A DNA stretch of 63,343 nt from an uncultured Gammaproteobacteria bacterium (GCA_964447765.1 CAYUTO010000005.1:1-63343); one strand, 5' to 3'; counted from the first letter of the stretch, positions 4,213-57,570 are shown. Program-made: numbers and translations. Notes: generated from the letters alone by a model not told the origin.

Positions 4213-5214
4213 ATGCGTAAAGTAGGAATTGATCTTGGTACCACAAATATTTTGGTATATATTCCAAAACGAGGGATTGTAGTAAACGAACCTTCTGTTG
4301 TTGCTATCTCAAAAGAAGATAGGAGAGTATTGGCGGTAGGAGCAGAAGCAAAAGAAATGATTGGTAGAACTCCTGATACGATTATCGCTGAGCGTCCGTT
4401 AAAAGATGGAGTTATTGCGAGTTACAAAACTACGGAAGCGATGCTTCGTTATTTTATTAATAAAGCACTAGGGGGAATTCGCTTATTTCGCCCTGAAGTG
4501 ATGGTCGCCGTACCTGCGGGGATTACCTCAACCGAGAGAAGAGCGGTGATTGACGCGGCTATGGCAGCTGGTGCAAAAGCGGCATATATTATTAAAGAGC
4601 CTATTGTTGCGGCAATTGGAGCTGATATTCCTATTGGCTCTCCATCTGGGCATATGATTATTGATATTGGTGGAGGAACTGCTGAAATTGCGGTTATTTC
4701 GCTGGGGGGAATTGTATCAGTTGGATCAGTGCGTATTGGAGGAAATAGGTTTGATCTATCAATTGCTGAATTTATACGCAGAAAATATGGACTTGCTATT
4801 GGAGAACAAAGTGCTGAAGAAGTGAAGATCCAGATTGGAAGTGCCATGTTTATGGATACCCCGCTCACTATGGATGTAAAGGGGAGAGATATGGTTACAG
4901 GTCTTCCACGTACGGTTACGGTCACGTCTGATGATACTACTGAAGCCTTGCAACATGATCTCGAAGGACTTATCGAGGCCGTAAAAGAAGTGTTGAATCG
5001 TACCCCTCCTGAACTCTCTGCTGATGTGATGAATAAAGGTATTATTATGTCTGGGGGATCAAGTTTGCTCAGAAATCTTGATGAGCTTATTGCGCAAGCA
5101 ATTGGGGTTGCGGCGTATGTGGCTGAAGAGCCATTGCTTTGTGTTGCAAAAGGCACGGGTATTGCGCTTGAGAATCTTGATAATTATAAACGATCGATTG
5201 TGTCGACGAGGTAA
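4213..5214 (+). CDS. mreB: Rod shape-determining protein MreB/Mbl
   Basis: IDLGTTN, EPSVVA, RPLKDGVIA, IDIGGGT, GGSSLL. Confidence 0.95.
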   Translation: MRKVGIDLGTTNILVYIPKRGIVVNEPSVVAISKEDRRVLAVGAEAKEMIGRTPDTIIAERPLKDGVIASYKTTEAMLRYFINKALGGIRLFRPEVMVAVPAGITSTERRAVIDAAMAAGAKAAYIIKEPIVAAIGADIPIGSPSGHMIIDIGGGTAEIAVISLGGIVSVGSVRIGGNRFDLSIAEFIRRKYGLAIGEQSAEEVKIQIGSAMFMDTPLTMDVKGRDMVTGLPRTVTVTSDDTTEALQHDLEGLIEAVKEVLNRTPPELSADVMNKGIIMSGGSSLLRNLDELIAQAIGVAAYVAEEPLLCVAKGTGIALENLDNYKRSIVSTR

Positions 5215-5282
5215 TTAACAACTAACAAGGAACAATTAGCAAAAATTTAAACTTGTTAATTGTTAGTTGCTCATTGTTAATT
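5213..5282. repeat. Periodic palindrome, AAyTAAC heptamer family (copy 1)
   Basis: Left arm AATTAAC AACTAAC AAGGAAC AATTAGC AA (5213-5242); right arm 5253-5282 reads on the minus strand AATTAAC AATGAGC AACTAAC AATTAAC AA; 10-bp loop. Confidence 0.8.
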
Positions 5283-5289
5283 TTATTTT

Positions 5290-6459
5290 ATGATCATCGG
5301 TATTGACGCATCTCTAGTGGCTCGGGAACAACGTACGGGGGTGGAGTCGTATGCGTTTCAGATTATTACGCATTTGAGTACCGTTATTCCTTCTGAAGTT
5401 GAGGTTCGGCTCTACAGTGATCGTGCGCTCCCTACAAATTTTGTACAACGTATCCCTGCGCATTGGAAACAGATAATTCTTGCCTGGCCCCCTCGATTTT
5501 TGTGGACCCAAGTTCGGCTTAGTTTTGAGATGTTACAACATCCTCCAGATATTTTATTTGTGCCGGGACATGTAGAACCGGTGATTCAACCAAAAGCCAC
5601 TCTCATGATGGTACATGATGTAGCTGCATGGAGAGTTCCTCGTGCGTATTCAAAATTTGATCGGTGGTATACACTTTTTTTGACCATGAGGGCAGTACAG
5701 AAAAATCCAGTGATTCTTACTCCGAGTTTTTTTACTAAACAAGAATTAGAACAATTAGTACATGAACGAAAAATTACCAAAAAAGCTGAAGTATTGGTTA
5801 TTCCTCATGGTCATGTTTCTCGACGGATTACTGTTCCCACTACTCCTGCAAAAGTTTTTGTTCGCTACGGAATTGATCAAAATACTCGTTATATACTTTG
5901 TGTTGGTCGAATTGAATATAAAAAGAATATTGATACAATACTTTCCGCATTTGAGAAATTAAAGTCAGAAAACCCTGAACACACTACTCTGAAACTGGTA
6001 CTTGCGGGAAAGCCAGGTGTTGGATATGAGGATATACAGAGTTTGATTGCTTGCAGTCGGTACCGGACAGATATTATTGAAACTGGATGGCTTCATGAAG
6101 ATGAACTAATGCAACTATTTTTCCATGCGCGTGTATTGGCTTTTGTGAGTCGATATGAAGGATTTGGTTTTCCTGTTTTGGAGGCACTTGATCTTGGTGT
6201 TCCTGTTGTTGCTTCTCGTGGTATAGGTTTAGAAGAGGTGGGTGGAGTGTGTGTGACCTATGTATCTTCTACTGATCCAGATCAGATTTCTCGGGCAATA
6301 CAGAAAAGTCTTTCTCTTTCTTCGGCTGCTCGTCTTGAATTTGGAGCTCAGGCACGTGCGCATGTATCGCAGTTTTCTTGGGCTCGTTCTGCTGAGGCAA
6401 CCTATGGAGCTATCACGAGGGCATATGAAATTGCCGAGGCGAGTAAGCGTGTGATATGA
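5290..6459 (+). CDS. GT4 (glycosyltransferase family 1) protein
   Basis: MIIGIDAS...TGVESY start, VGRIEYKKN, SRYEGFGFPVLEAL. Confidence 0.9.
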   Translation: MIIGIDASLVAREQRTGVESYAFQIITHLSTVIPSEVEVRLYSDRALPTNFVQRIPAHWKQIILAWPPRFLWTQVRLSFEMLQHPPDILFVPGHVEPVIQPKATLMMVHDVAAWRVPRAYSKFDRWYTLFLTMRAVQKNPVILTPSFFTKQELEQLVHERKITKKAEVLVIPHGHVSRRITVPTTPAKVFVRYGIDQNTRYILCVGRIEYKKNIDTILSAFEKLKSENPEHTTLKLVLAGKPGVGYEDIQSLIACSRYRTDIIETGWLHEDELMQLFFHARVLAFVSRYEGFGFPVLEALDLGVPVVASRGIGLEEVGGVCVTYVSSTDPDQISRAIQKSLSLSSAARLEFGAQARAHVSQFSWARSAEATYGAITRAYEIAEASKRVI

Positions 6460-6474
6460 TTGTCTACAAGAACT

Positions 6475-7389
6475 ATGTCATGTATTGGTCATGAAAAAAT
6501 AATTTCTTTTTTTGATGCTTGTATTTCAGAGCGTAAGCTTAGTCATGCCTATGTTTTTTCTGGTCCACGGCATGTAGGTAAACGAACAATTGCTAATACT
6601 ATTGCACGAACTATTCTTGGTATTTCTCGGGACCAGGCACTGGTACATCCTGATTTGATTGTGGTTCAGCGGGAACTCGATGAGAAGACAGAAACTTTGA
6701 AAAAAGATATTAGTGTTACTCAGATTCGAGATTTGATCCATCGATTGAGTCAGAGTGCTTTTGCAAAAGATGGATATACTGTTGCAATTGTTGACGGAGC
6801 TGAACATATGAATGCGGCAGGAGCGAATGCGCTTTTGAAAACACTTGAGGAGCCACGAGCACGTACGATAGTTTTTCTTATTACTCAGGATGAGTACACA
6901 TTGTTACCTACTATCCGATCTCGGACGCAGTCAATATATTTTTCTCTCGTTGGTGTAGAAAAAATTAAAACGTACCTAGAATCTGTGGGTATTCCGGCTG
7001 GTCAGGCGGAGGAATATGCACATGAAGCTCATGGTTTGCCTGGATATGCCTGTGATTGGGCGCATGATTCGACTCTCTATGAATATCATGTGTCTCTCAA
7101 GCAGCGCTGCGTATCACTTATGCATATTCCGTTTTATGAGAAGATCAAAAAAATAGAAGAATTTTTTCAAGATAAAGATGACCATATTGAAGCGAGGGCA
7201 CGGATAATCGACATGCTTGGAGTTTGGACATTTACACTTCGTGATATAATGACGCTACACTCGTCTAATTCTGAGAGTCGATATGTAGTTTCTCAGGTAT
7301 TGGATTCAATACGTCACGCAGAAAAACAATTAAAACAGAATATTCACCCTAGATTAATTCTCGAGCATATCATGCTCGCACTACCTTAA
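6475..7389 (+). CDS. holB: DNA polymerase III subunit delta-prime
   Basis: SHAYVFSGPRHVGK, HPD, AANALLKTLEEP, LLPTIRSR; ATG 6475 preferred over TTG 6460. Confidence 0.9.
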   Translation: MSCIGHEKIISFFDACISERKLSHAYVFSGPRHVGKRTIANTIARTILGISRDQALVHPDLIVVQRELDEKTETLKKDISVTQIRDLIHRLSQSAFAKDGYTVAIVDGAEHMNAAGANALLKTLEEPRARTIVFLITQDEYTLLPTIRSRTQSIYFSLVGVEKIKTYLESVGIPAGQAEEYAHEAHGLPGYACDWAHDSTLYEYHVSLKQRCVSLMHIPFYEKIKKIEEFFQDKDDHIEARARIIDMLGVWTFTLRDIMTLHSSNSESRYVVSQVLDSIRHAEKQLKQNIHPRLILEHIMLALP

Positions 7390-7402
7390 TTATCCAGTTC
7401 GT

Positions 7403-8488
7403 ATGAAACGATCGCTTTCATCCATCTTTCTTTTATTCATCGTTATTGTCTTAAGTGGGCAAGCGTGTGTTGTTTTTGGAAGTAAGAAAAATACAGCACT
7501 TGGTCCTGCGGGAGTCTGGGTTACGACCGAGAATGGTGAATCGTGGACGCATATTGTGTCAGTTCCTACTGCTACAGGAGTGGTGCAAGTTCCACAAGCT
7601 GGAGTGTACAAGCTTGTTGATGATCCTCAAGATTCTCGTGCGCTTTATTGGGCATCGAGAGAAGATGGAATTTTTTATACTTATGATGATGGAAGAACGT
7701 GGACTCGCGCTGAAGCTCCGCTAAACACTGGATTAGTATATAGTATTGCAGTGCACCCTAAAGAAAAATGTACTATTTATGCTTCGAATGGAAGACAGGT
7801 CTTCAAAACACTCGACTGTATGCGTTCGTGGACTGAAGTATATCGAGAAAATCGTGCTGAATTTGTTGTGACTTCAGTTTCTATCAATCCGTTCAATCCT
7901 TTTGAAGTGCTCACGGCAACAAGTGCGGGTGATTTGTATGAGAGTGCCGATGGGGGAAATTCATGGCAAGTAAATACTCGACTTAATAGGACAGACATTC
8001 GTGAGGTGGTCTTTGATCAGAATAAAGAAGGAATTATTTATTTAGCTACCAGAGAAAGTGGATTATATCGTACGCGTGATGGGGGAGTTACGTGGGAAAA
8101 TCTTGCTCCTAATTTTAAGGAATACGCAGGTTCTTTACAGTTCCGTAGATTTATGGTATATCCTTCCAAAGCCGAGCAAATTTTCTGGGTTTCAAAATAC
8201 GGAATCCTAACGTCACGTAATTCTGGAGAAGAGTGGGAGCCAATCTCTCTCGTGACTCCTCCTGGAAGCGTCGACATCTATGGATTTTCAGTTAACCCAA
8301 AAAATGATAAAGAAATGTATTACACGGGGAGTATTGGGGATCGTTCTACGTTTTACCGGAGTATTGATGGTGGGGTGACCTGGGAAACACGTAAGCTGCC
8401 TACAAAACAAACCCCTACTGCACTTCGTGTCCACCCTGAGCAAGAGGGGTGGGTGTACCTCGGATTTACGACGATTATGAAGAAATAA
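7403..8488 (+). CDS. Secreted Asp-box/BNR beta-propeller protein with a lipobox-like signal
   Basis: Hydrophobic leader ending LSGQAC; about 7 Asp-boxes (TYDDGRTW, SADGGNSW, TRDGGVTW, SIDGGVTW, etc.). Confidence 0.8.
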   Translation: MKRSLSSIFLLFIVIVLSGQACVVFGSKKNTALGPAGVWVTTENGESWTHIVSVPTATGVVQVPQAGVYKLVDDPQDSRALYWASREDGIFYTYDDGRTWTRAEAPLNTGLVYSIAVHPKEKCTIYASNGRQVFKTLDCMRSWTEVYRENRAEFVVTSVSINPFNPFEVLTATSAGDLYESADGGNSWQVNTRLNRTDIREVVFDQNKEGIIYLATRESGLYRTRDGGVTWENLAPNFKEYAGSLQFRRFMVYPSKAEQIFWVSKYGILTSRNSGEEWEPISLVTPPGSVDIYGFSVNPKNDKEMYYTGSIGDRSTFYRSIDGGVTWETRKLPTKQTPTALRVHPEQEGWVYLGFTTIMKK

Positions 8489-8563
8489 ATTTAAATTGAG
8501 ATATCAAATCGTTCTCTTGTATATTTCGTGTAATGGGTAATTAATCAGTGTAATCAATGTCAT

Positions 8564-12077: not shown

Positions 12078-15000
12078 ATGGTAAAAGTGAAGAAAAATGA
12101 ACAGAAGTTAGTGAAATCACAATCACGTAATTCTAACAGCAAATATGATTTTGCTGCTTATTGGGTTTGGCATGAATTACTATTATCATATGGTAGACTT
12201 CGTAAAACTACCAAAACTCGCACAGCAAAAAAAGAACTTAATGCTCTTGGTAAACAAATCATGCGTCATTATGTAAAAAACTTTGTTTATTTTCCTGTTT
12301 GGCTGTTTAAATTACTTACACCGTCGTATTTGAAGGGTCCGGTAACGGTGTGGACCAATTTACGCACCATTCTTCGGAGTTCTGAATTTCGCCCTCTTCG
12401 ACTTGCGGTGGTTTCGCAGGCAGTCTTTTGTTTTGTGTTTATTAGATTAGGAATGCTTATTTTTTATAATCTTTCAACTCCAGCTGATGCCGCTACGTTT
12501 GGCTGGATACAGACCACCTGGACTGGGGGAGTCTCGACTACGGCGACAGCGACACATTCGAGTGATCGTACGGGGTGGACTACCTATGTCAGTTCGACTC
12601 AATTGAATACTACTGTTTCATCTGGAAATATCACTATCTCAACTTCATCGTATACAACGACAGATGATAGTAGTCTTTCGACTGACGGGTTGGCAAGTGG
12701 CGGTGGGTTTGCAAATGGAACGACGTCTAGTGTTGTAGTAAGCGGTGGAGATGTGACACTCGGTATTGCATCTGCGGGGGGAGAAATTAATCAGTGGGAT
12801 GCAAGCCCTTATAATCTTCCTGCAACTATCAGTGGTACTGAAGATGGAAATGGAGTAATGATTAGTGATGGGGTTGATGCTTTCTATATCCTTCGTGGAG
12901 GTGGAACGACTGGGTTTTATAAATTTATTCCCTCTGATAAAACAACGAGTACACTTACCTCTGTACCTACCTCTATTCCACCAAACGGTGGTGGTGGATC
13001 AATTGCGCTGTCAGGTGACTATATTTATCTTTATTCTGGTGGCAATAGTAGTGTTAAATTTTACGCGTATTCGATTTCGGGAAATTCATGGACCACTCTC
13101 GCGAACCCGCCAAGTTCCCCTTATGGTGATGGTATTGGTAGTACTATGGCTGTCGATGCTCTGGGAAATATTTATTTTGCAGCAGGTGGGGCGACGACGA
13201 ATTTTTTAAAGTATACAGTAACTTCAAGTGCTCCGTATGGGGAGTGGAGTGTTTTGTCTAACATTGGAAGTTCTGTTGGAAGAGGTTCGCGAGCAATATA
13301 TGATAGTGAGAATAATGATATCCTTATTCTTACAGGTAATAATGGTCATATGATAAGCAAATATGACATTGATTTAAGTGTGATGACTAATTATAGTGGT
13401 GCACCTAATGATCCTGGTTTTACCTCAGGTGCTTCGATGGTAAAAAATGATGATAATGATATTGTATATGCAATTACCGGTCAAAACTATGCATGGCTTG
13501 AGAGATTGAATTTGAATACTGGTACATGGGCTTCAAGACAAACTTCTTCAACGCCTGCTGCAGGAAATACCGTCGGGTATATGATACATAAGCCTGGAGA
13601 AAACAGGATATATACGACATTTGGAGGAACTAGTTTTTACTATCTTCGACCGTTGAATGGAGACTGGATGTTTACGACAACTACCAAACCAATTCCTGGG
13701 TCAATTGGTGCGGGAGCCACGATGATTCGACATAACAATGACGAAATTTATGTATTGGCAGGAGGAGGTAGTAGTGCGATTTATCGTTTTGCGATTAATG
13801 CTGGTACGCAATACACGACTACAGGTACACTCACTTCTGCGACCATTGATCTTAAATATGCTACCTCTACACGGATTTCATGGTCCTCGAGTGCGCATGG
13901 TCAGACTGGTTCTGATCCGGTAAAATTTCAAGTTGCTGCAAATACGGATAATGCTACGTGGAGCTATGTAGGTCCGGATGGAACTTCTGGTACGTACTTC
14001 ACTAGTTCAAATACTGCATTGCCAGGGTCGTTAAATGGAAAAAGATACTATCGATATCGAGCCTATTTAACTACTGCAAATACTTCATTCACTCCGACAC
14101 TTAGTAGTGTTACCTTTACGTATCACAGTTATTTGACCTCTGGTTCACTTGCTTCTAATCCTTTTAATGCTGAGGACGATACTAATGTGCTTGCTGCAGT
14201 CTCATGGGTGGGTAGTACTCCCACAGGTACGGTAATTAAATTCCAGGTACGCACCAGTCCTGATAACTCAAACTTTACTTCATGGATGGGACCTGATGGA
14301 ACTTCTGGTACGTATTTTACTGATAGTAGCGGTGCACAAATGATGCCTGCTCAGTTGATCGATGGCGAAGATGATCGTTGGATTCAGTATAAGGTATTTT
14401 TTGAGTCTGACGGAACAGGTACTCCGATTCTTGAGCAAAGTACGCTCACTTATGTAGTGAATGCACCGCCTGAGATTGTTATTACTAATACTGTCTCGAC
14501 TACGTCTGGTGGAATTGTGGTTGTGAATTATGATGTACGTGATATTGATAGTTCTACAGGTGTTACCGCAGGGGTTGTTGGAGTTACACTTCAGTATTGT
14601 ACGGCGAGTTGTTCGAGTGTGGGGAATGAGGTCTGGGCTACAGCTGCAACCTCGAGTTTGACCGGAACCTTTGGTCCGAGTGTTTCAGTGGATACTGTTT
14701 CAACTACTCAGTATACAAGTTACTCATTAACATGGACCCCGACTAGTTCGTATAATAATCAATATAATGGATCGGATTTTAAAATCCGTCTCCGTGCGAA
14801 TGATTCTGAGGCGGCAAATAATATTGGTGTTGATGAGTCTAATACATTTGTACTTGATACTACTGATCCTATACCAACAATTATTATTGATGGACGGAGC
14901 ACTGCTACTAATACGCTTTCGATTAGTGTGACTGATGATACGATGGCAGGATTAGAAATGAAATTATCAAATGATAGTGATTTGTCTTCTGATGGATTAA

Positions 15001-18000
15001 ATGGGAGTTCAGGTACATGGATCCCCTATGCAACAACCTCGACGTGGAATTTGGGTACTGGAGGAACAACGGTCTATTACCAGGTTAGGGATGCATTTGG
15101 AAATATCTCTGCAAATGGTATTATCTCCTCTGCAGAGACTCCTGAAATTCCTGGAAATTTATTTTTTAAAGATATTTCGAACTCTGATACTTTGGAATGG
15201 CGAGAATTTATTGCATGGCAGATTATTGATGATCCGACTCCTGGATTTGCACAATATGCGATCTATCGTTCAAGTGACGGTATTAATTATACTGAAATTG
15301 CTACTCAAGTATCACGTGTTATTAATTATTATCTTGATACTGATATTGATACAGGGACAACATACTATTACAAAGTCACCTCAGAAGATCTCGATGGTAA
15401 TATTTCGGCGTTTTCGACTATTGTATCTGATGATCCGAATGGGACTGGAGGAACCGATGTGTCTGCACCGACTATTTCAAATATCACGACGAGTTCAGTT
15501 GGGTCTAATTCGATTACCATTTCCTGGGAGACTGATGAAGTATCTGATTCGTATGTTGATTATACAACCGAAGAGGGAAGTGATTTTAGTAATGTAGATA
15601 CGGTGGGTCTGACGACGATGAGAAATAACGCAGCAGGACTTGGTGTTCACACTGTATCTCTCACGAATCTTGCACCAAATACGACGTATTATTTCCGTGT
15701 ACGTTCTCTTGATCCTGATGGTAATGAAGGAATTGGAACACAAGCTCCGAATGGATATGTGTATACGACGCTCACTGGTCCGATCATTTCAGATGTCTCA
15801 GTCGCTGAAATTCGGAATACTGAAGCTATAATTACCTGGACTACTGATCAAGCGAGCGATTCGTATGTAGTTTTTTCCACTTCTTCAAGTTTTACGGCGT
15901 CTTCGACTGTAGGCTCTCCGCTTGCCGTGTCGTCTCATGAAGTTACTTTACCTTCGCTTATTCCAGGTACGGTGTATTATTATTTTGTTCAATCTGGCCA
16001 GGTTACTGATAAGAATATTGTCGAAGGACAGTATGAGTATTATACGTTTGAGACAACTGCGGACCTTACTGCTCCGGTTATTACTTTTGATTCTGAAGAT
16101 GATCTGATTATTACGGACTCATCTCTCGTTATTACTTTTGCAACTGATGAGCCTGCAACCTCGACTATTTTGTATGGTACAAGTGATGAATACGGATCGA
16201 GTGTGATAAATAATAATCTCAATAGTGATCATCATGTGTCGCTTACAGGGCTTCTTCCTGGAACGGTGTATTATCTGAGTATCCAAGTTTCAGATGAAGA
16301 TCGTAATCGATCGAGTGCTTTAGAATTTACTGCGACTACCACTGATAGTGCAGATTATACGGCTCCTATTATTAGTTCAGTTTCTACTCGAGTGGTGACT
16401 GATGATGAGGCACTCATACTCTGGTCAACTGATGAGGGTGCGACGGGTCGGGTTTATTATGGTACGACAAGTTCACTCTATGCTCAATCGAGTAGTTTAA
16501 TTTCAACTTACAATCGCGAGCATGCTATAACTCTAAGTAGTCTCACTACCTCAACTGAATATTTTTATGTAGTTGTATCAGTGGATGCGAGTGGAAATAG
16601 TAGTACTTCAACTGAAAATTCATTTACCACCCTCGAAGAATTATCTGAAGAGAGTGAAGTTCGATTACGTGAAGAAACAGCGTATGCACAAGGTTTGGCT
16701 GATGCTTCTCCGCCTCCAGATTTTGTTGCACCAGTTATTTCAAATGTTACCTCTACAGTCGTGACTGATGATGAGGCTCTTATTATCTGGTCTACTGATG
16801 AAGGTGCGACGGGACGGGTTCATTATGGCACTACTCCTTCATCATATACCGAGTCGAGTGATTTTGTGTCTACGTTTAATAGTGAACATGCGATCACACT
16901 TCATAATCTTGCGACTTCTACACAGTATTATTTTATTGTAGTGTCTGCTGATTCTAGTGCAAATACTTCTACGTCTGCTGAATATACGTTTACTACACTT
17001 GAGACGCTCTCAGAAGAAAGTGAAGTATTACTCCGTGAAGAAACTGCCCGAGCACAGGGTGTGGTGCAGGGATCTGCAACCGTGCCATCGAGCGGTGGTG
17101 GAGGTGGTTCTTCGGTTGATCGGGTGGGTCCCACAATTTCTAATGTTGTCGTGGGAAATATTACCTCTGATAGTGCTTCGATTACGTGGAATACGAATGA
17201 AAATGCAAATACTCTGGTTGAATTTGGAAAAACTACTGATTATGGACGAGGTTCTCTTGATCTTGAAAATACACAGGTACACTCGATTGATTTGGTTGAA
17301 CTCATGCCAGAGACGGTGTATTTTTATCGAGTGAGTTCAATTGATACTTCTGGAAATCGAAGTGCGGGAGTAACTGGATCGTTTACGACTATTTCTCTCG
17401 TGGAAGATATTGTATCGAGCACTGAGGATATTATTGAAGAGCCAGATGAAGAAGCGTCTGATGCAGCAGAACAATTATTCCTCTCTACTATTGAAAAAGC
17501 TGGTCAGATTATCAAGAGTCTTGCTGGTCGTGTGAGTGTGGGTGTGCTCGAGTCATCCTTACTTGCTCAGGCACAGATTATTGAACAATTGTCTGACATT
17601 TTGCCATTACCAATTATTGGTGGACAGCCCGTTGTTGATGCAGGATCGAATTATGCTACGATCTCATGGAGTACTGATAAAAATGCAAATTCACTAGTTG
17701 AGTTTGCGCCTGAAGGAGAGTTTCTGTCTGATAGGACTTATGACCAGACGGTAGGAGAGCCTACGGCTTCTCGAACGGGGCATGTAGTTGAAGTGAAAGG
17801 GTTGCTTCCTGATACGGTATATCATTATCGTGTGGTTTCTCGTACACAAACAGGATCTGAAACAAAGTCTCAGGATTTTGTATTTAAAACGAGATCTCAG
17901 ACTAATGAAATTACGAATTATAATGTGACTGTGCTTTCTCCTGAAGAAGCTACGTTCTCATGGGCAACGACTGTCCCTACTGATTCGGCTTTGACCTATA

Positions 18001-18581
18001 CTCCGTATCGAAATGGGGTACCGCAGGTTGAGGCACGGCAGACGGTGCGACAAGCAGGACTTACTACTCAGCATATTCTCAAAGCATCAGGATTCGAGGC
18101 AGGAGTTCTCTATGATGTGGAATTGCTTGGTACTGACACGGGCAATAATGTGTCGAGTAAGGTGATTAAAGGTTTTTCTACTGAAGGAGAAGATCTTGCT
18201 CCGGTGATTTCACAAATTCAGACTGATGCGGCAATTGTGCCTGGCGGAAAAGAAAAGATTCAAATTATTATTTCATGGCAGACCAATGAATTGTCAACGA
18301 GTAGATTGTTTTATCGTAAAGGATTTGCTGCTGAAGGAATTGAATTTACTGCGAGTACTACTCTCGATCAAAATTACACGAAAAAACATGTGGTAGTAGT
18401 CACCAACTTTGAACCAGGTACGGTGTATCAGTTTGTGGTTGAGAGTATTGATTCAAGTGGTAATACCGGAATTTCCAAAACAATTACTATTCTTACTCCT
18501 CAAAAAGAACAATCAGTGTTTCAGGTGATTTTTAGCAACGTAGAAGACATGTTCTCATGGGTGGGCAAGCTTAGAAGTTAG
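12078..18581 (+). CDS. Giant (2167 aa) surface protein: long leader/TM, Kelch-like propeller, about 10 FN3/purple-acid-phosphatase-N-like domains
   Basis: Hydrophobic segment then ADA|AT cleavage-like site; IYxxxGG...W Kelch-like blades; repeated xPxISxV...IxWxTDE modules; Ser/Thr/Gly rich. Confidence 0.8.
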   Translation: MVKVKKNEQKLVKSQSRNSNSKYDFAAYWVWHELLLSYGRLRKTTKTRTAKKELNALGKQIMRHYVKNFVYFPVWLFKLLTPSYLKGPVTVWTNLRTILRSSEFRPLRLAVVSQAVFCFVFIRLGMLIFYNLSTPADAATFGWIQTTWTGGVSTTATATHSSDRTGWTTYVSSTQLNTTVSSGNITISTSSYTTTDDSSLSTDGLASGGGFANGTTSSVVVSGGDVTLGIASAGGEINQWDASPYNLPATISGTEDGNGVMISDGVDAFYILRGGGTTGFYKFIPSDKTTSTLTSVPTSIPPNGGGGSIALSGDYIYLYSGGNSSVKFYAYSISGNSWTTLANPPSSPYGDGIGSTMAVDALGNIYFAAGGATTNFLKYTVTSSAPYGEWSVLSNIGSSVGRGSRAIYDSENNDILILTGNNGHMISKYDIDLSVMTNYSGAPNDPGFTSGASMVKNDDNDIVYAITGQNYAWLERLNLNTGTWASRQTSSTPAAGNTVGYMIHKPGENRIYTTFGGTSFYYLRPLNGDWMFTTTTKPIPGSIGAGATMIRHNNDEIYVLAGGGSSAIYRFAINAGTQYTTTGTLTSATIDLKYATSTRISWSSSAHGQTGSDPVKFQVAANTDNATWSYVGPDGTSGTYFTSSNTALPGSLNGKRYYRYRAYLTTANTSFTPTLSSVTFTYHSYLTSGSLASNPFNAEDDTNVLAAVSWVGSTPTGTVIKFQVRTSPDNSNFTSWMGPDGTSGTYFTDSSGAQMMPAQLIDGEDDRWIQYKVFFESDGTGTPILEQSTLTYVVNAPPEIVITNTVSTTSGGIVVVNYDVRDIDSSTGVTAGVVGVTLQYCTASCSSVGNEVWATAATSSLTGTFGPSVSVDTVSTTQYTSYSLTWTPTSSYNNQYNGSDFKIRLRANDSEAANNIGVDESNTFVLDTTDPIPTIIIDGRSTATNTLSISVTDDTMAGLEMKLSNDSDLSSDGLNGSSGTWIPYATTSTWNLGTGGTTVYYQVRDAFGNISANGIISSAETPEIPGNLFFKDISNSDTLEWREFIAWQIIDDPTPGFAQYAIYRSSDGINYTEIATQVSRVINYYLDTDIDTGTTYYYKVTSEDLDGNISAFSTIVSDDPNGTGGTDVSAPTISNITTSSVGSNSITISWETDEVSDSYVDYTTEEGSDFSNVDTVGLTTMRNNAAGLGVHTVSLTNLAPNTTYYFRVRSLDPDGNEGIGTQAPNGYVYTTLTGPIISDVSVAEIRNTEAIITWTTDQASDSYVVFSTSSSFTASSTVGSPLAVSSHEVTLPSLIPGTVYYYFVQSGQVTDKNIVEGQYEYYTFETTADLTAPVITFDSEDDLIITDSSLVITFATDEPATSTILYGTSDEYGSSVINNNLNSDHHVSLTGLLPGTVYYLSIQVSDEDRNRSSALEFTATTTDSADYTAPIISSVSTRVVTDDEALILWSTDEGATGRVYYGTTSSLYAQSSSLISTYNREHAITLSSLTTSTEYFYVVVSVDASGNSSTSTENSFTTLEELSEESEVRLREETAYAQGLADASPPPDFVAPVISNVTSTVVTDDEALIIWSTDEGATGRVHYGTTPSSYTESSDFVSTFNSEHAITLHNLATSTQYYFIVVSADSSANTSTSAEYTFTTLETLSEESEVLLREETARAQGVVQGSATVPSSGGGGGSSVDRVGPTISNVVVGNITSDSASITWNTNENANTLVEFGKTTDYGRGSLDLENTQVHSIDLVELMPETVYFYRVSSIDTSGNRSAGVTGSFTTISLVEDIVSSTEDIIEEPDEEASDAAEQLFLSTIEKAGQIIKSLAGRVSVGVLESSLLAQAQIIEQLSDILPLPIIGGQPVVDAGSNYATISWSTDKNANSLVEFAPEGEFLSDRTYDQTVGEPTASRTGHVVEVKGLLPDTVYHYRVVSRTQTGSETKSQDFVFKTRSQTNEITNYNVTVLSPEEATFSWATTVPTDSALTYTPYRNGVPQVEARQTVRQAGLTTQHILKASGFEAGVLYDVELLGTDTGNNVSSKVIKGFSTEGEDLAPVISQIQTDAAIVPGGKEKIQIIISWQTNELSTSRLFYRKGFAAEGIEFTASTTLDQNYTKKHVVVVTNFEPGTVYQFVVESIDSSGNTGISKTITILTPQKEQSVFQVIFSNVEDMFSWVGKLRS
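16395..17060 (+). repeat. Recent 366-bp tandem duplication inside the giant gene
   Basis: GTGACTGATGATGAGGC at 16395 and 16761; GAAGARAGTGAAGT at 16647 and 17013; both offsets are 366 bp (122 aa). Confidence 0.85.
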
Positions 18582-18605: not shown

Positions 18606-18635
18606 TTGACAAAACGCACTGTTTTTACGTATACT
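18606..18635 (+). promoter_or_regulatory. Sigma70-type promoter of the T-box-glyS transcript
   Basis: TTGACA-N18-TATACT. Confidence 0.7.
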
Positions 18636-18643
18636 ATCTATCG

Positions 18644-18787
18644 ATAAGTTAAGGTAATGATAAGGGGTGGCTCCCTTTGAACTTTTGGCTTATATAAGGT
18701 AAAAAAGTGTCCCGACTGAGTCGGGAAACTTGGGTGGAACCCCCGGTCGAATGGCTGGGCCCAAGACCATTAATGTGGTCTTTTTTT
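18644..18787 (+). ncRNA. Glycyl T-box riboswitch with ultra-short Stem I and no Stem II
   Basis: Stem I 18644-18693 with K-turn and GGC at 18669-71; Stem III 18710-26; antiterminator CUUGGG-UGGAACC-CCCGGUC/GGCUGGG-CCCAAG 18729-65; overlapping terminator AAGACCA/UGGUCUU plus U-run 18763-87. Confidence 0.88.
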
Positions 18788-18803
18788 ATTCAAAATATTG
18801 CTT

Positions 18804-20114: not shown

Positions 20115-20125
20115 CGTAAGTAAAG

Positions 20126-20190
20126 GAATGAAGATTGAAGAATAAAGATTACATTTTTTTCTTTCAATTTTCAATCTTTAGTCTTTCAAT
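20126..20190. repeat. Periodic palindrome, GATTGAA heptamer family (copy 1)
   Basis: GAATGAA GATTGAA GAATAAA GATTA on the left; right arm 20161-20190 reverse complement contains GACTAAA GATTGAA AATTGAA. Confidence 0.7.
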
Positions 20191-20206
20191 ATTATAATCT
20201 TTTTCT

Positions 20207-21479: not shown

Positions 21480-21595
21480 CGAAATTTGAATGAATCGAAT
21501 TTATGAATAGGGGAAAAGTTTTCTGGTTTACTGGTTGTCTAGTTGTCGGGTGAATTCGTATGTTCTTTTGACTTTCGACTTTTTACTTTTGACTT
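21480..21595. repeat. Stack of unpaired periodic arms from different repeat families
   Basis: GAAT units 21480-21508; 8-bp-spaced CTGGTT/CTAGTT units at 21523, 21531, 21539, 21547; 7-bp-spaced (G)ACTTT units at 21571, 21578, 21585, 21592. Confidence 0.6.
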
Positions 21596-25039: not shown

Positions 25040-25046
25040 CTGAGAA

Positions 25047-25115
25047 AATGAACAATTAGCAATAAACAATTAACAGTACCGCATTTTGTTAATTGCTCTT
25101 TGATAATTGTTCATT
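25047..25115. repeat. Periodic palindrome, AAyTAAC heptamer family (copy 2), between two tRNAs
   Basis: AATGAAC AATTAGC AATAAAC AATTAAC A; right arm 25087-25115 reverse complement AATGAAC AATTATC AAAGAGC AATTAAC A; 11-bp loop. Confidence 0.8.
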
Positions 25116-25125
25116 TTTCATTCGT

Positions 25126-30234: not shown

Positions 30235-30256
30235 CTGGTTATCTAGTTGTCTGGTT
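30234..30256. repeat. Unpaired 8-bp-periodic arm (CTGGTT/CTAGTT family)
   Basis: Units at 30235, 30243, 30251; ACTGGTTATCTAGTTGTC is 17/18 identical to 21530-21547. Confidence 0.6.
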
Positions 30257-30260: not shown

Positions 30261-30327
30261 AAGATTGAAGATTAAAAACTGAAGATTAAGGAAAATTTAA
30301 AATCTTTAGTCTTTAATCTTCAATCTT
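30261..30327. repeat. Periodic palindrome, AAGATTR heptamer family (copy 2)
   Basis: AAGATTG AAGATTA AAAACTG AAGATTA; right arm 30301-30327 reverse complement AAGATTG AAGATTA AAGACTA AAGATT; 12-bp loop. Confidence 0.8.
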
Positions 30328-30357
30328 TTTTATTTATTCATATCAGGGTGTGAGCTA

Positions 30358-30386
30358 TTGAAAAAGTTATTTATATTCGCTATACT
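30358..30386 (+). promoter_or_regulatory. Promoter of tRNA-Trp
   Basis: TTGAAA-N17-TATACT. Confidence 0.65.
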
Positions 30387-38709: not shown

Positions 38710-38777
38710 AAGTCGTAAAGTCGATAAAGTCTAAAGTGATTTGTATTCTACTTTCGACTTTACAGACTTTCTGACTT
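38710..38777. repeat. Periodic palindrome, AAAGTC family (copy 1)
   Basis: AGT units spaced 8,9,7 on the left and ACT units spaced 7,9,8 on the right (mirror image). Confidence 0.8.
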
Positions 38778-38791
38778 TTCACTTATTTTAT

Positions 38792-39648: not shown

Positions 39649-39891
39649 ATGCCATCAACCAAAAAAGATTTGAATATATATGGGACATGTCATGGTACTA
39701 CTTCTCTAGGGGAGCGAGGCCAGGTTGTTGTTCCGAAAAAAGTAAGATCTAAGCTTTCTCTCAAGAAAGGTGATAACTTTTTGGTTATTGAAAAAGATGG
39801 GGTTATTATTCTGGCCCCGACGAGCGTAGTTGAGTCGATGATTTCTAATTTATCAAACCTTAGTGAAGAATTAAAAAATTCACATATATAA
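39649..39891 (+). CDS. AbrB/MazE/SpoVT-family DNA-binding protein
   Basis: TTSLGERGQVVVPKKVRSKLSLKKGD. Confidence 0.88.
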   Translation: MPSTKKDLNIYGTCHGTTSLGERGQVVVPKKVRSKLSLKKGDNFLVIEKDGVIILAPTSVVESMISNLSNLSEELKNSHI

Positions 39892-46365: not shown

Positions 46366-46370
46366 TACTG

Positions 46371-46458
46371 CAGTCAAAAGTCGGAAAGTCTATAAAGTCG
46401 AAAGTAATTTCAAATGCATATATATTTCTTGACTTTATGGACTTTTGACTTTCGACTG
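46371..46458. repeat. Periodic palindrome, AAAGTC family (copy 2)
   Basis: AGT units spaced 7,8,9,7 on the left; 46378-46405 is 25/28 identical to 38710-38737. Confidence 0.8.
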
Positions 46459-46473
46459 TTTTAAGGCTATACT
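46445..46473 (+). promoter_or_regulatory. Promoter of yidC, with the -35 box inside the repeat arm
   Basis: TTGACT-N17-TATACT. Confidence 0.65.
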
Positions 46474-52964: not shown

Positions 52965-52977
52965 TGATAGACTAATA

Positions 52978-53002: not shown

Positions 53003-53021
53003 TTATTTCTTACATATTTAT

Positions 53022-53606: not shown

Positions 53607-53614
53607 TCTTACTT

Positions 53615-54721
53615 ATGTCATCAAAAGATTATTATAAAATTCTCGGTGTAGAAAAGACTGCGTCTGCCGAAGAAGTGAAAAAAGCATTTCGTAAGCTTGC
53701 GCATAAATATCATCCGGATAAGCAAGGAGGGGACGAAGCAAAGTTCAAAGAAGTGAACGAGGCTTTTCAGGTAATCGGTGATGAGACGAAGCGAAAGCAA
53801 TATGATCAGTTTGGTGCTGATTTCAATCAACAGGGTGGGTTTGGTGGTGGAATGAGTTGGGATGACTTTATGCGGGCTAGTCGTGGCCAGGGCGGAGCCC
53901 AGGGAGGATTTAATGGTAATTTTGGTGGGTTTGATTTTGGAGATATTTTTGGTGAGGCATTTGGGTTTGGTGGGGGCAGATCATCTCGTCAACGCAGAGG
54001 AAATGATATTCAGGTGGATATTGAATTAGAATTCAAAGATGCTGCATTTGGTATTGATCGAGAAATTAAGCTTACCAAAAATAATGCGTGCGATGTATGT
54101 ACTGGATCTGGCGCTGAACCTGGAAGCAAGGTTAATAATTGTGAAGAATGTAAAGGGTCTGGGCAAGTTCGACGAGTACAGCAAACGATACTTGGTGCCA
54201 TGCAAACAGCGGTAACTTGTTCCAAATGTAAGGGTGTAGGAAAATTTCCAGAAAAAAAATGTAAGCATTGTGGTGGTGATGGAGTTGTTCGTAGTGAATC
54301 ATCATATAATGTAAAAATTCCCGCTGGAATTTCTGAGGGTGAGGCAGTACGATTGGCTGGAAAAGGTGAGAGTGGCGGAGCGGGAGTAGTGCCAGGTGAT
54401 TTGTATATTCGTGTGCATGTTCGCGAACACAAAGGCTGGGAACGTGATGAATATGATATCCATAGTGAGATTGCTATCAACTATCCTCAAGCAGTGCTTG
54501 GAGATACAGTACCTGTAGAGACTCTTGATGGAGAAAAGAAAATTGCAGTGCCTGAGGGTGTACAAGCGGGGCAAGTAATTCGTCTGAAGGGTTTAGGAAT
54601 CCCTCGTTTGCACGGCACAGGGAGAGGGGATCACTATGTACATGTGAAAGTTGATGTACCAAAGAAAATTTCGAAGGCTGCGAAGAAATTGATTGAAGAG
54701 TTGAAGAGTGAATTAGAGTAA
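53615..54721 (+). CDS. dnaJ: Chaperone DnaJ
   Basis: HPD J-domain, G/F region, four CxxCxGxG repeats. Confidence 0.98.
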
Positions 54722-54723
54722 TA

Positions 54724-54750
54724 AAAAATCACCCTTATCGGGTGATTTTT
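54724..54750. terminator. Bidirectional terminator
   Basis: AAAAATCACCC-TTATC-GGGTGATTTTT between convergent genes. Confidence 0.85.
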
Positions 54751-54753
54751 GTT

Positions 54754-55194
54754 TTACACAATAACTAGGTGTGTTTGTAGTTCTTCTACATCGTCCTCTA
54801 ATCTTTCTATCCGTCCTTCATGTCGCAGCAGTGCATGGTTAGTTGCTGCCATCTCCTCAGTCATTTTCTTGAGTACTCCGGTTATCTCATCCTGTACGGT
54901 GAGAATAGTATTTAAATTTTCTGGGATGTCCTTTATTTTTTCTTTGATGTCTGACACATTAGTTTGAAGATTAACGATTGATGTTGCCATTCTGTCAGCT
55001 GTGCTAGACAGTGTTTCTACTCTTCCTGATAGGATGCCCACTGTTCCAGAGAGTGTGCTGACTGTCCCAGTCAATTGATCTACTGTCCCGGTTAACGTGT
55101 CAACTACTCCAACTGTCTTATTTACTGTTTCCTTAATCTCAGAAACATCTGTTTGAAGCTGGGTTATTGGCTCAGCTATTTTATCTTCCTCCAT
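54754..55194 (-). CDS. Heptad-repeat coiled-coil protein
   Basis: TGTVDQL TGTVSTL SGTVGIL SGRVETL; ACTGTYCC at 55040, 55061, 55082 (21-bp spacing); AAGGAGG SD. Confidence 0.75.
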   Translation of the reverse strand: MEEDKIAEPITQLQTDVSEIKETVNKTVGVVDTLTGTVDQLTGTVSTLSGTVGILSGRVETLSSTADRMATSIVNLQTNVSDIKEKIKDIPENLNTILTVQDEITGVLKKMTEEMAATNHALLRHEGRIERLEDDVEELQTHLVIV

Positions 55195-55253
55195 ATAATT
55201 CCTCCTTAAGAATAATATGTGTATGTTATCTTACTCTGTGAAACATTGTCAAT

Positions 55254-55658
55254 TTAGTACGCTTTACCATCAAGTACGCGATTGACTTCTGCATCGGCTT
55301 CTTTATTTTTATGCCGCAATACATGGGTAATTCTCACTCGTTTGAATTTTTGTAACAAATTCCATGCTTCAATAAATAGTTTTTGAAGTGTTGGTTCTTT
55401 TACTTTCCATCGTCTGTTCAGTTGTTCTACGACGAGTTTACTATCCGCAATGCATTCTACTTCGTCGGCTCCTAGTTCCAGTGCTTTTTTGAGCCCAGAA
55501 ATAATTGCCATGTATTCGGCATAATTATTTGTTTGTTTGCCTAGATAATCACCAAATGCACTTACTTTTTTTCCTGTATCATCTTTGATTACTACTCCAG
55601 TTGCTGCAGGACCTGGATTTCCTCGAGCTCCGCCGTCGGTGTAGATAGTTAGTTTCAT
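55254..55658 (-). CDS. rnhA: Ribonuclease HI family protein
   Basis: YTDGGARGNPGPA, TNNYAEY, DSKLVVEQ, NKEADAEVN. Confidence 0.93.
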   Translation of the reverse strand: MKLTIYTDGGARGNPGPAATGVVIKDDTGKKVSAFGDYLGKQTNNYAEYMAIISGLKKALELGADEVECIADSKLVVEQLNRRWKVKEPTLQKLFIEAWNLLQKFKRVRITHVLRHKNKEADAEVNRVLDGKAY

Positions 55659-55670
55659 AAGTTTTATGGC

Positions 55671-55745
55671 ACACAGATTACCATGATCTCCATGATAATC
55701 CAGGATTATATCTTGGTTAATCCGGGTAATTCTGGTAATCTGTGT
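55671..55745. repeat. Periodic palindrome with ~9-bp units (CAGATTAC family)
   Basis: Perfect 13-bp terminal inverted repeat ACACAGATTACCA/TGGTAATCTGTGT; GAT cores at 55676, 55685, 55694, 55704. Confidence 0.75.
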
Positions 55746-55754
55746 TCTATTAGA

Positions 55755-57524
55755 TTATTGATTAACTTCTGATTTTCTTAGATCGACGATAGTCAACTGC
55801 AATTCTCTATTTCCATTCCATTCGTTTACGTTAATGTGGAATACCATATCAATTTTATCACCAGGCTTCAGTACTTTGCCCCAATTAGTGTCTCCATCAC
55901 AGAGTCCCCAGCCAATGGTTTTTTTTATTTTATGCGTTTTATGTTTTACCATGATTCGCAAATGTTTTCCTTCTTTTCCTACTGGTTGAATTTGGTGTAC
56001 GGTGACACCTCGAGCGAGGTATTGGGGCTGTTCATTTGCGACACCAAATGGTTTGAATTTATCCAGTATATCAAATAATTCCCAATTCACATCCTCGACA
56101 TCAATTTCTGCATCCACGAGAAGGGTAGGAGTCATGTCTAAACCTTTTGTTTTTTCAATGTACGCTTTATTAATTGCTACTTTAAATTCATTGAACTTTT
56201 CTTTTGAAAGTAAGGTAAACCCGCATGCCATCGGGTGCCCACCAAATTTGAGGAAATATTGTGGCATTTCTTGCAGTGTCGCGATCATATCAAATCCGGG
56301 TACACTTCTGCCTGAGGCAACAATTACACCTTCATTTTCGGCGCACACGATGGTGGGTTTGTGGTATTTTTCTTTGAGTCGTCCCGCAATGAGTCCTACG
56401 AGTCCTGGAGACCAGCCGACTCCATAGATAAGGATGACTGATGCATCTTTGTCTTTTTGCGCTTGTTGAATGGCTTCTTTTGCAAGTTCTTCAGTAAGTT
56501 TTTGACGGTCTTGGTTATTGGTATTCAGTTCAAATGCGAGATCGATTGCATCAGTTCCTTTTTCTGCAATCATGAGATTAAAAGCAGTTTTTGCATGATT
56601 CATTCTTCCTGCAGCATTAATTCGGGGTGCAATTTGAAAGCCGATAGTATCGGTGGTGATTTCTTTTTTCTTTTCATCGCCTTCTTGATGAAATCGTGCT
56701 TCGAGTAATAATTTTTTTAAACCCAAACGACGAGTATGATTGAGTACGATTAATCCATATTTGGTGAGTGTGCGTGATTCTCCAATTAGGGGGATCATGT
56801 CAGCTACGCTTGCGATCGCGACCATATCCAAAAGCCATTTTTCGTGCGACTCGTGGTTTTTTCCGTTAGGCAGTAATTCATTCGATTCTTTGTGTTTTCT
56901 CATGAGTCCTTGTACTAGTTTGAATGCTACTCCTCCACCTGCAAGATTTTTGTCTGGGTATAATTCTCCCGGAACTTTTGGGTGAATTATGGCGAATGCT
57001 GGGGGCGGAATTTCTGGTACTGCATGGTGATCGGTCACGATTACATCAATTCCTGCTTCTTGTAGTTTTATAATTTCGGCTACATTACTTACCCCACAGT
57101 CGCAGGTGACTACTAGATTCACTTTGTCTTTGATAAATGTATTGACGGTATTCATGCTGAGTCCATAGCCATCGCGTTCTCGGTGGGGGATAAAGACATT
57201 GGTATTTTTACTCCCAAGTGCTCGAAATGTGGAAACGAGTATTACTGATGCTGATACACCGTCAGCATCGTAGTCCCCGTGCACGATGATTGATTCTTGA
57301 TTTTCTATAGCTTTAAAAATTCGAGCAATCGCTTTTTCCATATCCTTGAATAGGAATGGATCATAGATATTTCGCTCATAATCAGGATTCAAAAATTCGT
57401 CTATTTCTTTTTGAGTCCGCATATTTCGATGGTACAACAAACGAGCCACAATAGGGAGTAGTTCGGGATGTTCTTCCATGAATTGTTCGGGAGGCGCTGG
57501 TTGGAGCGCCCATTTTTTTTGCAT
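55755..57524 (-). CDS. recJ: ssDNA exonuclease RecJ
   Basis: GDYDADG, TCDCG, TDHH, APRINAAGR, GGHPMACG, C-terminal OB fold. Confidence 0.97.
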   Translation of the reverse strand: MQKKWALQPAPPEQFMEEHPELLPIVARLLYHRNMRTQKEIDEFLNPDYERNIYDPFLFKDMEKAIARIFKAIENQESIIVHGDYDADGVSASVILVSTFRALGSKNTNVFIPHRERDGYGLSMNTVNTFIKDKVNLVVTCDCGVSNVAEIIKLQEAGIDVIVTDHHAVPEIPPPAFAIIHPKVPGELYPDKNLAGGGVAFKLVQGLMRKHKESNELLPNGKNHESHEKWLLDMVAIASVADMIPLIGESRTLTKYGLIVLNHTRRLGLKKLLLEARFHQEGDEKKKEITTDTIGFQIAPRINAAGRMNHAKTAFNLMIAEKGTDAIDLAFELNTNNQDRQKLTEELAKEAIQQAQKDKDASVILIYGVGWSPGLVGLIAGRLKEKYHKPTIVCAENEGVIVASGRSVPGFDMIATLQEMPQYFLKFGGHPMACGFTLLSKEKFNEFKVAINKAYIEKTKGLDMTPTLLVDAEIDVEDVNWELFDILDKFKPFGVANEQPQYLARGVTVHQIQPVGKEGKHLRIMVKHKTHKIKKTIGWGLCDGDTNWGKVLKPGDKIDMVFHINVNEWNGNRELQLTIVDLRKSEVNQ

Positions 57525-57550
57525 ACGATTAATAGAACACGGATGGTGCG

Positions 57551-57570
57551 CCTGCCTGCCGGTAGGCAGG
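57551..57570. repeat. GC-rich 20-bp REP-like palindrome
   Basis: CCTGCCTGCC-GGTAGGCAGG (one G-T wobble), embedded among ACACGGAT/AACGGAT units. Confidence 0.7.

Follow-up and report, generated by a model that had tools for sequence, protein, structure and literature searches.

We analyzed a window of 63,343 nucleotides (GCA_964447765.1 CAYUTO010000005.1:1-63343), deposited as DNA of an uncultured Gammaproteobacteria bacterium, and found in its spacers seven two-armed palindromes with a 7-9-bp periodicity, together with three one-armed arrays. The window, a term we use for this whole stretch, is a piece of the chromosome of a Candidatus Magasanikbacteria, an ultra-small bacterium belonging to Patescibacteria, also called the candidate phyla radiation (CPR). 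Our preferred interpretation, to which we assign a probability of roughly 55%, is that the elements form several lineage-specific families of dispersed imperfect palindromes of 70-110 bp, whose arms are tandem 7-8(-9)-bp units, and that they serve as co-transcribed AU-rich hairpins that punctuate the space between cistrons. They are best read as the Patescibacteria counterpart of the short tandemly repeated repetitive (STRR) hairpins of cyanobacteria, with a dispersal similar to that of repetitive extragenic palindromic (REP) sequences or miniature inverted-repeat transposable elements (MITEs).

The elements are listed below. Relatives are cited by locus number, L001 belonging to the nearest genome, and predicted folds are given as free energy (dG, kcal/mol) with z-scores relative to dinucleotide shuffles.

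5213..5282, plus strand: family A (AAYTAAC / GTTARTT), filling the mreB/GT4 glycosyltransferase spacer; arms 5213-5242 and 5253-5282. The first unit includes the mreB stop codon, TTTTATTTT follows the second arm, and the ATG stands 8 nt past the arm; dG -22.1, z -4.0.
20123..20186, plus strand: family B (AAGATTG / CAATCTT), glyS/M16-peptidase spacer; arms 20123-20151 and 20162-20186; dG -18.2, z -2.6.
21518..21547, plus strand: family D one-armed array (CTGGTTKT, period 8), peptidase/tpiA spacer; no stable fold (z +0.8); nearly identical in L001.
21565..21595, plus strand: family C one-armed T-rich array (four GACTTTY units), ending 4 nt before the tpiA ATG.
25045..25122, plus strand: family A element filling the tRNA-Val/tRNA-Thr spacer; arms 25045-25075 and 25087-25117, then TTTTT; dG -25.6, z -6.2.
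30235..30256, plus strand: family D one-armed array directly 3' of the typA stop codon, identical in L001; about 20 of 23 nt match the 21518 array, as read by eye.
30261..30340, plus strand: family B element; arms 30261-30287 and 30301-30327, then TTTTTTATTTATT; upstream of the tRNA-Trp promoter TTGAAA-17-TATACT (30358-30386); dG -30.1, z -5.3.
38710..38778, plus strand: family C (AAAGTCR / YGACTTT), filling the amino-acid permease/uppP spacer; arms 38710-38737 and 38750-38778; dG -25.4, z -5.1.
46370..46461, plus strand: family C element (also cited as 46371), macB-like permease/yidC spacer; arms at about 46370-46407 and 46424-46461. Its last unit provides the -35 hexamer (46445-46450) of the promoter TTGACT-17-TATACT at 46445-46473; dG -43.8, z -7.8.
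55671..55745, minus strand: CAGATTAC-type element, period 8-9, in the spacer between the minus-strand genes recJ and rnhA; arms 55671-55705 and 55713-55745. It carries no T-tail on the sense strand; dG -29.9 sense, -36.3 antisense. It is identical in L082 and L083 and bears no relation to the E-type copies of L001 (described below) beyond the unit.

A first-pass annotation of this DNA had described the seven two-armed elements and their common architecture, and both descriptions were borne out by an inverted-repeat search, Tandem Repeats Finder (TRF), and direct reading of the sequence. The inverted-repeat search returned the elements at 5213, 20123, 25045, and 30261. TRF reported arrays of period 7 to 9 at the elements; each arm comprises about four units of 7-9 nt, the second arm is inverted, and the loops measured 7-23 nt. 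The one-armed arrays at 21518-21547, 21565-21595, and 30235-30256 also proved real. A further copy proposed at 57536 is a GC hairpin region rather than a periodic array and was picked up by no scan, and an apparent array at 60463-60490 turned out to be pentapeptide-repeat coding sequence. Next to the two arrays of the peptidase/tpiA spacer lies an imperfect 14-nt tandem duplication (21483-21510, GAATTTGAATGAATC / GAATTTATGAATAG), which is kept in L001.

Chance origin of the periodic arrays is excluded. The annotation had named shuffled intergenic DNA as the control that could overturn its proposal; in the window, intergenic DNA holds 10 arrays of lag 6 to 9, compared with 0.5 ± 0.7 (maximum 3) in 200 dinucleotide shuffles. 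The whole window contains 17 periodic arrays where 3.1 are expected, and two-armed chains of exact 5-mers number 4, compared with an expected 0.02. At least five unrelated families, with the units AAYTAAC, AAGATTG, AAAGTCR, CTGGTTKT, and CAGATTAC, occur within 63 kb, and an Rfam search, at the gathering threshold and at E<=1, returned no match overlapping any element.

The seven two-armed elements are predicted to fold in RNA as single long hairpins, with stems of 23-37 bp, dG of -18 to -44 kcal/mol, and z-scores from -2.6 to -7.8. An element fills its whole spacer, leaving 0-27 nt between itself and the stop codon or tRNA end upstream and 4-21 nt between itself and the next start codon or tRNA. 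The statement that they always lie between co-directional genes holds in the window without being significant (among gaps of 60 nt or more, 8 of 23 co-directional ones and 0 of 4 others are occupied; hypergeometric P ~0.22) and is false in relatives, where a two-armed element sits in the 5' untranslated region (UTR) of the divergent ahpC gene (L001) and arrays stand at convergent junctions (L008, L009).

Members of one family are true paralogs that have been dispersed. Collinear, full-length pairs of the same family occupy unrelated junctions (A, 5213 and 25045; B, 20123 and 30261; C, 38710 and 46371), as do three copies of a further family, E1, E2, and E3, in L001. Local alignment scores between paralogs range from 29 to 56, compared with a shuffled 99th percentile of 20, and the two A paralogs are separated by one compensatory change from a U-A to a G-C pair. 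Relative to transcription, paralogs point both ways.

Copies that have been retained show much stronger conservation than synonymous sites and are under purifying selection for as long as they are present. Divergence at fourfold degenerate sites between the window and the L001 genome is 0.34 (2380 sites). Over the same evolutionary distance, the spacer 3' of typA is identical at 172/172 nt, and the tRNA-Val/tRNA-Thr spacer is 94% identical, with most changes in the loop. The mreB/GT4 element is 91% identical, and so is the peptidase/tpiA spacer, including one clean 7-nt unit indel by which the family C array of L001 is short by exactly one unit. Other intergenic regions are 56-95% identical. 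At the deeper divergence represented by L006, about 4 of 58 arm positions of the tRNA-spacer element differ (hand count); all of these changes fall in predicted bulges or give G.U pairs, and the loop and flanks have been replaced.

This pattern bears on the idea that the elements are functionless, either by-products of a heptamer-prone slippage or template-switch bias or selfish MITE-like DNA tolerated in spacers. Several observations are in keeping with it: the sharp intergenic period-7 excess across Patescibacteria loci, the in-frame arrays inside a coding gene of L018 (both described below), the gains, losses, and swaps between close genomes, and the lack of either orientation preference or strand asymmetry. 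Moreover, a passage of PMC4692102, citing its reference 33, ascribes the over-representation of heptamers in many bacteria to polymerase slippage. However, copies retained at 91-100% identity against a 34% difference at fourfold sites, arms more conserved than loops at deeper divergence, and compensatory changes count against it, and we consider this explanation distinctly improbable.

Comparing the same junctions among relatives revealed what stands there when a periodic palindrome does not. Between typA and tRNA-Trp, the window and L001 carry the D array and the long B palindrome, whereas in L004, L005, and L006 the slot is taken by a plain hairpin of short length, AAAGATTGAAGA...TCTTCAATCTTT, with a T-run after it. 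The sequence of this hairpin is that of the window's unit, and in L006 it shows a compensatory change (GGAGA/TCTCC). L002 has a long palindrome of another family (AAAACTCA) at this junction, L003 and L043 a GC hairpin, and L007, L010, L012, and L015 textbook GC terminators. Similarly, the 85-nt family A palindrome between tRNA-Val and tRNA-Thr is present in the window, L001, and L006; in L002 and L043 this spacer measures 38 nt and contains a small hairpin and T5. Since these slots hold terminator-type hairpins in relatives, the periodic palindromes occupy the slot of a terminator hairpin, and no junction of the window has both a canonical terminator and a periodic hairpin. It looks as if either the typA palindrome is a lengthened plain hairpin or the plain hairpin is a collapsed palindrome.

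These observations raise the possibility that the elements are simply the intrinsic (Rho-independent) terminators of this lineage, with unusually long AT-rich stems. The first-pass annotation had set them apart from terminators as lacking both a GC stem and a U-tail, which is half right. None has a GC-rich stem, and in five of the seven (5213, 25045, 30261, 38710, 46371) a run of at least four T adjoins or overlaps the stem's 3' end; the run is absent at 55671 and weak at 20123, where the T content downstream is unremarkable. Along with these T-runs and the hairpins in relatives' slots, the order of the arms, A-rich first and T-rich second in every element of the window, and the canonical promoters that follow two elements would suit a terminator. 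As a terminator signature, the A-rich-first order was rejected: it is true of the Magasanikbacteria elements and fails in L008, L021, L025, and L046.

Against plain termination, five of the seven elements precede, by 4-21 nt, a gene or tRNA with no promoter in between, a canonical promoter following only 30261 (30358-30386) and 46371 (46445-46473). A copy sits in a tRNA spacer, and L001 carries copies in the ahpC 5' UTR and beyond the T-box terminator of glyS. The stems of 23-37 bp with few G-C pairs and loops of 7-23 nt lie beyond the terminator pattern of a G+C-rich stem of ~5-14 bp and a 3-8-nt loop, and a terminator scan called none of the seven. One-armed arrays and palindromes with the T-rich arm first also exist. 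Overall, we regard plain terminators as an unlikely account. We also considered whether the 3' arms act as promoters; only 46445-46473 was convincing, and the candidates at 20168-20195 and 55720-55692 were at chance level.

The junctions further show turnover by gain, loss, and family swap, with unit indels and apparent correction between arms. The glyS/peptidase spacer has family B in the window and an unrelated CTAATTA-type palindrome in L001; at permease/uppP, the window's family C element is shared by L002 and gives way to an E-type element in L001. At mreB/GT4, family A is found in the window and the L001 genome, and an AAAGnnn-type palindrome in L076 and L078, the swap having occurred despite MreB being identical in protein sequence. 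The GST/typA spacer, which lacks an element in the window, has one of AAACTCA type in L001 and one of C type in L004, and the 6-nt gap between g36518 and the permease in the window corresponds to a B-type hairpin in L001. In the mreB/GT4 ortholog of the L077 genome we counted seven substitutions, four of which make a perfect 20-bp stem (dG -28.8 in the L001 lineage, compared with -19.1). Three of these four are clustered in one arm and one lies in the other, the pattern expected if one arm templates the other.

The three E-type copies of L001 are ~93 nt long and each abuts a start codon. They share the ends ACATTGATT...AAATCAAT, two of the three continuing with GTTGT (the ends are also given as ACATTGATT...AAATCAATGT). 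Copy 1 follows the T-box terminator of glyS and precedes the glyS ATG; the window's glyS leader has only 14 nt at that site, which resemble the element ends joined together. Copy 2 separates the -10 box from the ATG of the divergently transcribed ahpC and is absent in the window and L043; the ahpC leader of L002 instead has a one-armed CTTTTnn array. Copy 3 is the one at permease/uppP.

Whether the elements are non-autonomous mobile units, as the annotation had suggested, therefore receives a divided answer. In favor are the several collinear copies that, as in MITEs, have terminal inverted repeats in common and stand at unrelated loci, and the presence/absence differences and family swaps that the comparison of orthologous junctions brought to light. 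On the other side, that comparison yielded no flanking direct repeat; no transposase, target-site duplication, or cargo gene was seen, relatives offer no clean empty sites, and the changes in unit number and possible collapse or growth at one site look like change in place.

The annotation had also offered arrays for cognate binding proteins. In its fuller form, this proposal treats the heptamer chains as tandem sites for a single-stranded RNA or DNA protein that covers ~7 nt per domain (for example an OB fold of cold-shock or S1 type), or for DNA binders that recognize a specific sequence, with the hairpin secondary. A cold-shock domain has a footprint of about 7 nt. A period of 7 matches no DNA helical repeat, conserved unstructured one-armed arrays stand just 5' of the start codons of tpiA (window) and ahpC (L002), and cold-shock-domain open reading frames (ORFs) are present in some CPR loci. 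Yet one small genome contains many unrelated units, at least five families in 63 kb, no candidate protein is linked to the elements, and families are swapped at orthologous junctions in genomes ~90% identical while the flanking genes stay unchanged. We therefore disfavor cognate binding arrays and rate them as very doubtful.

A variant combines several of these ideas: heptamer hairpins that propagate themselves by hairpin or slippage copying, with no transposase involved, and were adopted as punctuation in place of terminators and leaders, their units being read one per domain by a cold-shock/S1-type OB-fold protein that opens or closes the hairpin. We hold this to be a long shot; if true, what the STRR do in cyanobacteria could be explained in the same way. 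Integron attC-like sites, or other site-specific recombination sites between gene cassettes, share the common geometry with differing sequence and the location between co-directional, promoter-less genes. This reading is effectively refuted by the conserved synteny of the flanks, which are core housekeeping genes and tRNAs across relatives; furthermore, the families have no RYYYAAC/GTTRRRY cores in common and the window encodes no integrase.

Of the functions put forward by the annotation, hairpins for mRNA processing or stability fit best, as judged by position and conservation only. In the punctuation mechanism that we favor, the elements would be transcribed with their neighbors and fold as AU-rich RNA hairpins of 20-37 bp, which would act irrespective of orientation on polycistronic mRNAs and tRNA precursors. 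Where a T-run follows, the hairpin may cause leaky (partial) termination; elsewhere, in operons, tRNA spacers, and leaders, it may shield the 3' end lying upstream or the 5' end lying downstream. The long stem might also be cut by RNase III as a processing site: the predicted 23-37-bp stems in promoter-less spacers provide at least the ~20 bp of double-stranded RNA between co-transcribed cistrons that are characteristic of such sites. REP elements have roles of this kind in E. coli. At the DNA level, the elements would change by replication slippage of whole units and by one arm serving as the template that corrects the other, and some copy-and-paste or recombination route would seed new junctions.

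Several results weigh against this interpretation. The co-transcribed hairpin account leaves unexplained why one-armed arrays are conserved, why a period of 7 is preferred, and by what route the elements disperse. Indeed, the unstructured one-armed arrays are conserved as strongly as the hairpins, which a hairpin function cannot explain, and the 172/172 identity 3' of typA might reflect a tract of recent recombination instead of constraint. Across 19 elements we detected no strand asymmetry, with 44 G.U pairs on the sense and 42 on the antisense strand and no energy bias; given this and the paralogs in both orientations, a purely DNA-level role is still conceivable. The T-rich-arm-first palindromes of other CPR lineages fit no terminator-like role. 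A covariance model of family A, run over the ~0.9 Mb of loci, recovered only the two known junctions and their orthologs, and therefore copy numbers may be low and the families appear lineage-restricted and not very numerous in the sampled DNA. Pfam and NCBIfam searches of ~50 ORFs in the window revealed no transposase, integrase, REP-associated tyrosine transposase (RAYT), or reverse transcriptase. Finally, in the filled/empty pairs (glyS leader, ahpC leader, and g36518/permease), the spacer is replaced and no target-site duplication is visible.

Among known systems, the closest kind is the STRR of heterocystous cyanobacteria, which are likewise tandem 7-bp units, dispersed and mainly intergenic, whose inverted arrays form hairpins between co-transcribed genes. 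The units of STRR1-3 are CCCCAGT, TTGGTCA, and CAACAGT. The window elements differ in their Patescibacteria host, in their AT-rich units, which are other than those of STRR1-3, in being mostly two-armed with about four units per arm, and in forming collinear families of 70-110 bp. Co-transcribed genes that have STRR hairpins between them include hupS-hupL; the function of these hairpins was still unknown in 2009, the proposals being a part in transcript stability or in coupling translation (PMC2670836). In Nostoc and Xanthomonas, an excess of heptamers is accompanied by arrays that keep their junction yet vary in length or sequence between relatives (PMC4692102).

The elements also resemble the REP sequences of proteobacteria, including REP doublets forming hairpins (REPIN) and bacterial interspersed mosaic elements (BIME), in being families of short, imperfect extragenic palindromes, often located between co-directional genes and co-transcribed. 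REPs are linked to mRNA 3'-end protection and to termination in passages of PMC3733652 and PMC3116915, and a passage of PMC3733652 gives their palindromes a GTAG or CGTC head; such palindromes are 20-40 nt long and conserved throughout a family. Unlike REP arms, those of the window elements have an internal tandem periodicity; no family has a GTAG/CGTC head, no RAYT was seen in the window, and copy number looks low.

The Correia elements or Neisseria miniature insertion sequences (NEMIS) are MITEs transcribed as hairpins together with their neighbors, with palindromic ends and insertion polymorphism, whose long stems are RNase III substrates and some of which supply promoter hexamers. The window elements share the palindromic ends, the polymorphism between close genomes, the probable co-transcription, and the supply of a promoter hexamer (46445-46450); no target-site duplication, parent insertion sequence, or fixed length was found for them, their arms consist of 7-8-bp repeats, and some of their changes look like growth or collapse in place. 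The likeness to intrinsic terminators consists of their location after stop codons, the T-run in five of seven, and the positional equivalence with the canonical terminators of relatives, and the difference of AT-rich stems of 23-37 bp, large loops, and locations inside operons, between tRNAs, and in 5' UTRs.

Palindromes of heptamer units are a wider feature of Patescibacteria, with a sharp excess at period 7. The comparison set comprised 74 loci fetched by a typA scan, with ~0.9 Mb of Patescibacteria sequence. In the Patescibacteria loci, arrays of period 7 or 8 occur at 75 per 100 kb in intergenic DNA, 6 in coding DNA, and 1.3 in shuffled sequence; the corresponding values for the non-CPR loci of the same fetch are 4.6, 2.1, and 2.1, which is background. 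The period histogram shows an excess only at 7 (39 vs 2.8 expected) and 8 (11 vs 1.6), with periods 4-6 and 9-13 close to background. Array density is patchy: several Magasanikbacteria, Falkowbacteria, and "Parcubacteria" loci have a high density, and G+C-rich loci a low one. In the library that was searched, combinations of Patescibacteria or CPR with terms for repeats, terminators, MITEs, or REPs turned up no account of such elements, and heptamer-hairpin repeats in this group have apparently not been described before.

Some arrays outside the window deserve separate mention. The prmC/hemK gene of L018 (403-1359) contains five in-frame arrays of period 7/8 (562-589, 719-759, 836-876, 998-1028, and 1191-1222). 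Four of the five belong to one family, in both orientations, and the arrays fall exactly at insertions relative to the Thermotoga HemK structures 1sg9 and 1nv8. Rickettsia palindromic elements (RPE) are 100-150-bp palindromes inserted in frame in protein-coding genes at tolerated loops; the L018 arrays are similar in lying in frame within a coding gene, and they differ from RPE in being single-arm heptamer runs, found only in this distant CPR locus and not in the window. In L059 (7984-8230), a perfect (AGGTGGTC)x6 array precedes arms of the AAGACAT / ATGTCTT type, which stand on either side of a canonical terminator hairpin and make a composite or nested element. Arrays of the CTGGTTGT/CTAGTTGT type, several with an inverted partner, were seen in unrelated metagenome contigs of 35-51% G+C (L086, L090, L103, L104, L109, L119, L126, and L138). 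A metagenome scan for the core of the D array, CTGGTTRTCTAGTTGTC, gave 64 matches, roughly the number estimated for chance; about one-third lie within periodic arrays on unrelated contigs, and no copy of the window's lineage was recognized at a new junction.

The assignment of the window to Magasanikbacteria agrees with its nearest loci in species-representative genomes, which come from Candidatus Magasanikbacteria and other Patescibacteria metagenome-assembled genomes. TypA is 98% identical in L001 and 89-94% identical in L002-L006 and L043. L001 comes from assembly GCA_964435035.1 and L078 from GCA_018061425.1, and the sequence of the window has also been assembled from SRR12712864 and SRR12712865. 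A cyanobacterial origin, suggested by the style of the repeats, was ruled out by the flanking genes and these nearest loci. We also noticed that L001, L002, L004, and L005 match Magasanikbacteria in genes and synteny, yet are titled "uncultured Gammaproteobacteria bacterium"; the Gammaproteobacteria labels on several Magasanikbacteria-like contigs are probably wrong.

The window has ~40% G+C, and the plus strand carries almost all genes up to 54.7 kb, the minus strand thereafter. The genes are largely of the housekeeping kind and include, in three groups:

mreB, a GT4 glycosyltransferase, frr, glyS (behind a T-box leader), an M16 peptidase, and tpiA.
Five tRNAs, typA, a DEAD-box helicase, uppP, MacB-type ABC transporters, and a short yidC.
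hrcA-grpE-dnaK-dnaJ, rnhA, recJ, lepA, and murJ.

Many spacers show canonical promoters (TTGACA-17-TATACT) and terminators with a GC stem and T-run; since these are plainly visible, the organism also uses ordinary signals. Most start codons of the window lack a recognizable Shine-Dalgarno motif upstream, and the T-rich arms of the arrays frequently end 4-21 nt 5' of an ATG. Upstream of glyS, at 18606-18803, a promoter (TTGACA-18-TATACT) is followed by the T-box leader and its terminator; the leader matches Rfam RF00230 with 42.7 bits (E 4e-6), under the gathering score of 93. The 2167-aa product of an ORF at 12078-18581 contains a Kelch motif as well as numerous repeats of FN3 and purple-acid-phosphatase-N type and is probably a giant surface protein. 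An 80-aa ORF at 39649-39891 resembles MazE/AbrB-type antitoxins and has no obvious toxin partner adjoining it. Because GC skew stays positive, though weaker, across the minus-strand block of 54722-63343, this block runs against the prevailing strand bias with no switch in skew.

Patescibacteria have tiny genomes with very short spacers, and, to our knowledge, how they delimit transcripts and start translation is essentially unstudied. A class of repeat-built hairpins that fills these spacers provides a testable handle on operon punctuation in the group. In practical terms, metagenome-assembled genomes have hotspots of assembly error and of strain-level variation at these elements, which could also mislead terminator and promoter predictors. 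They also represent a second, phylogenetically remote case of heptamer-repeat hairpins, and comparison with the cyanobacteria could separate the mutational cause of such repeats from their function.

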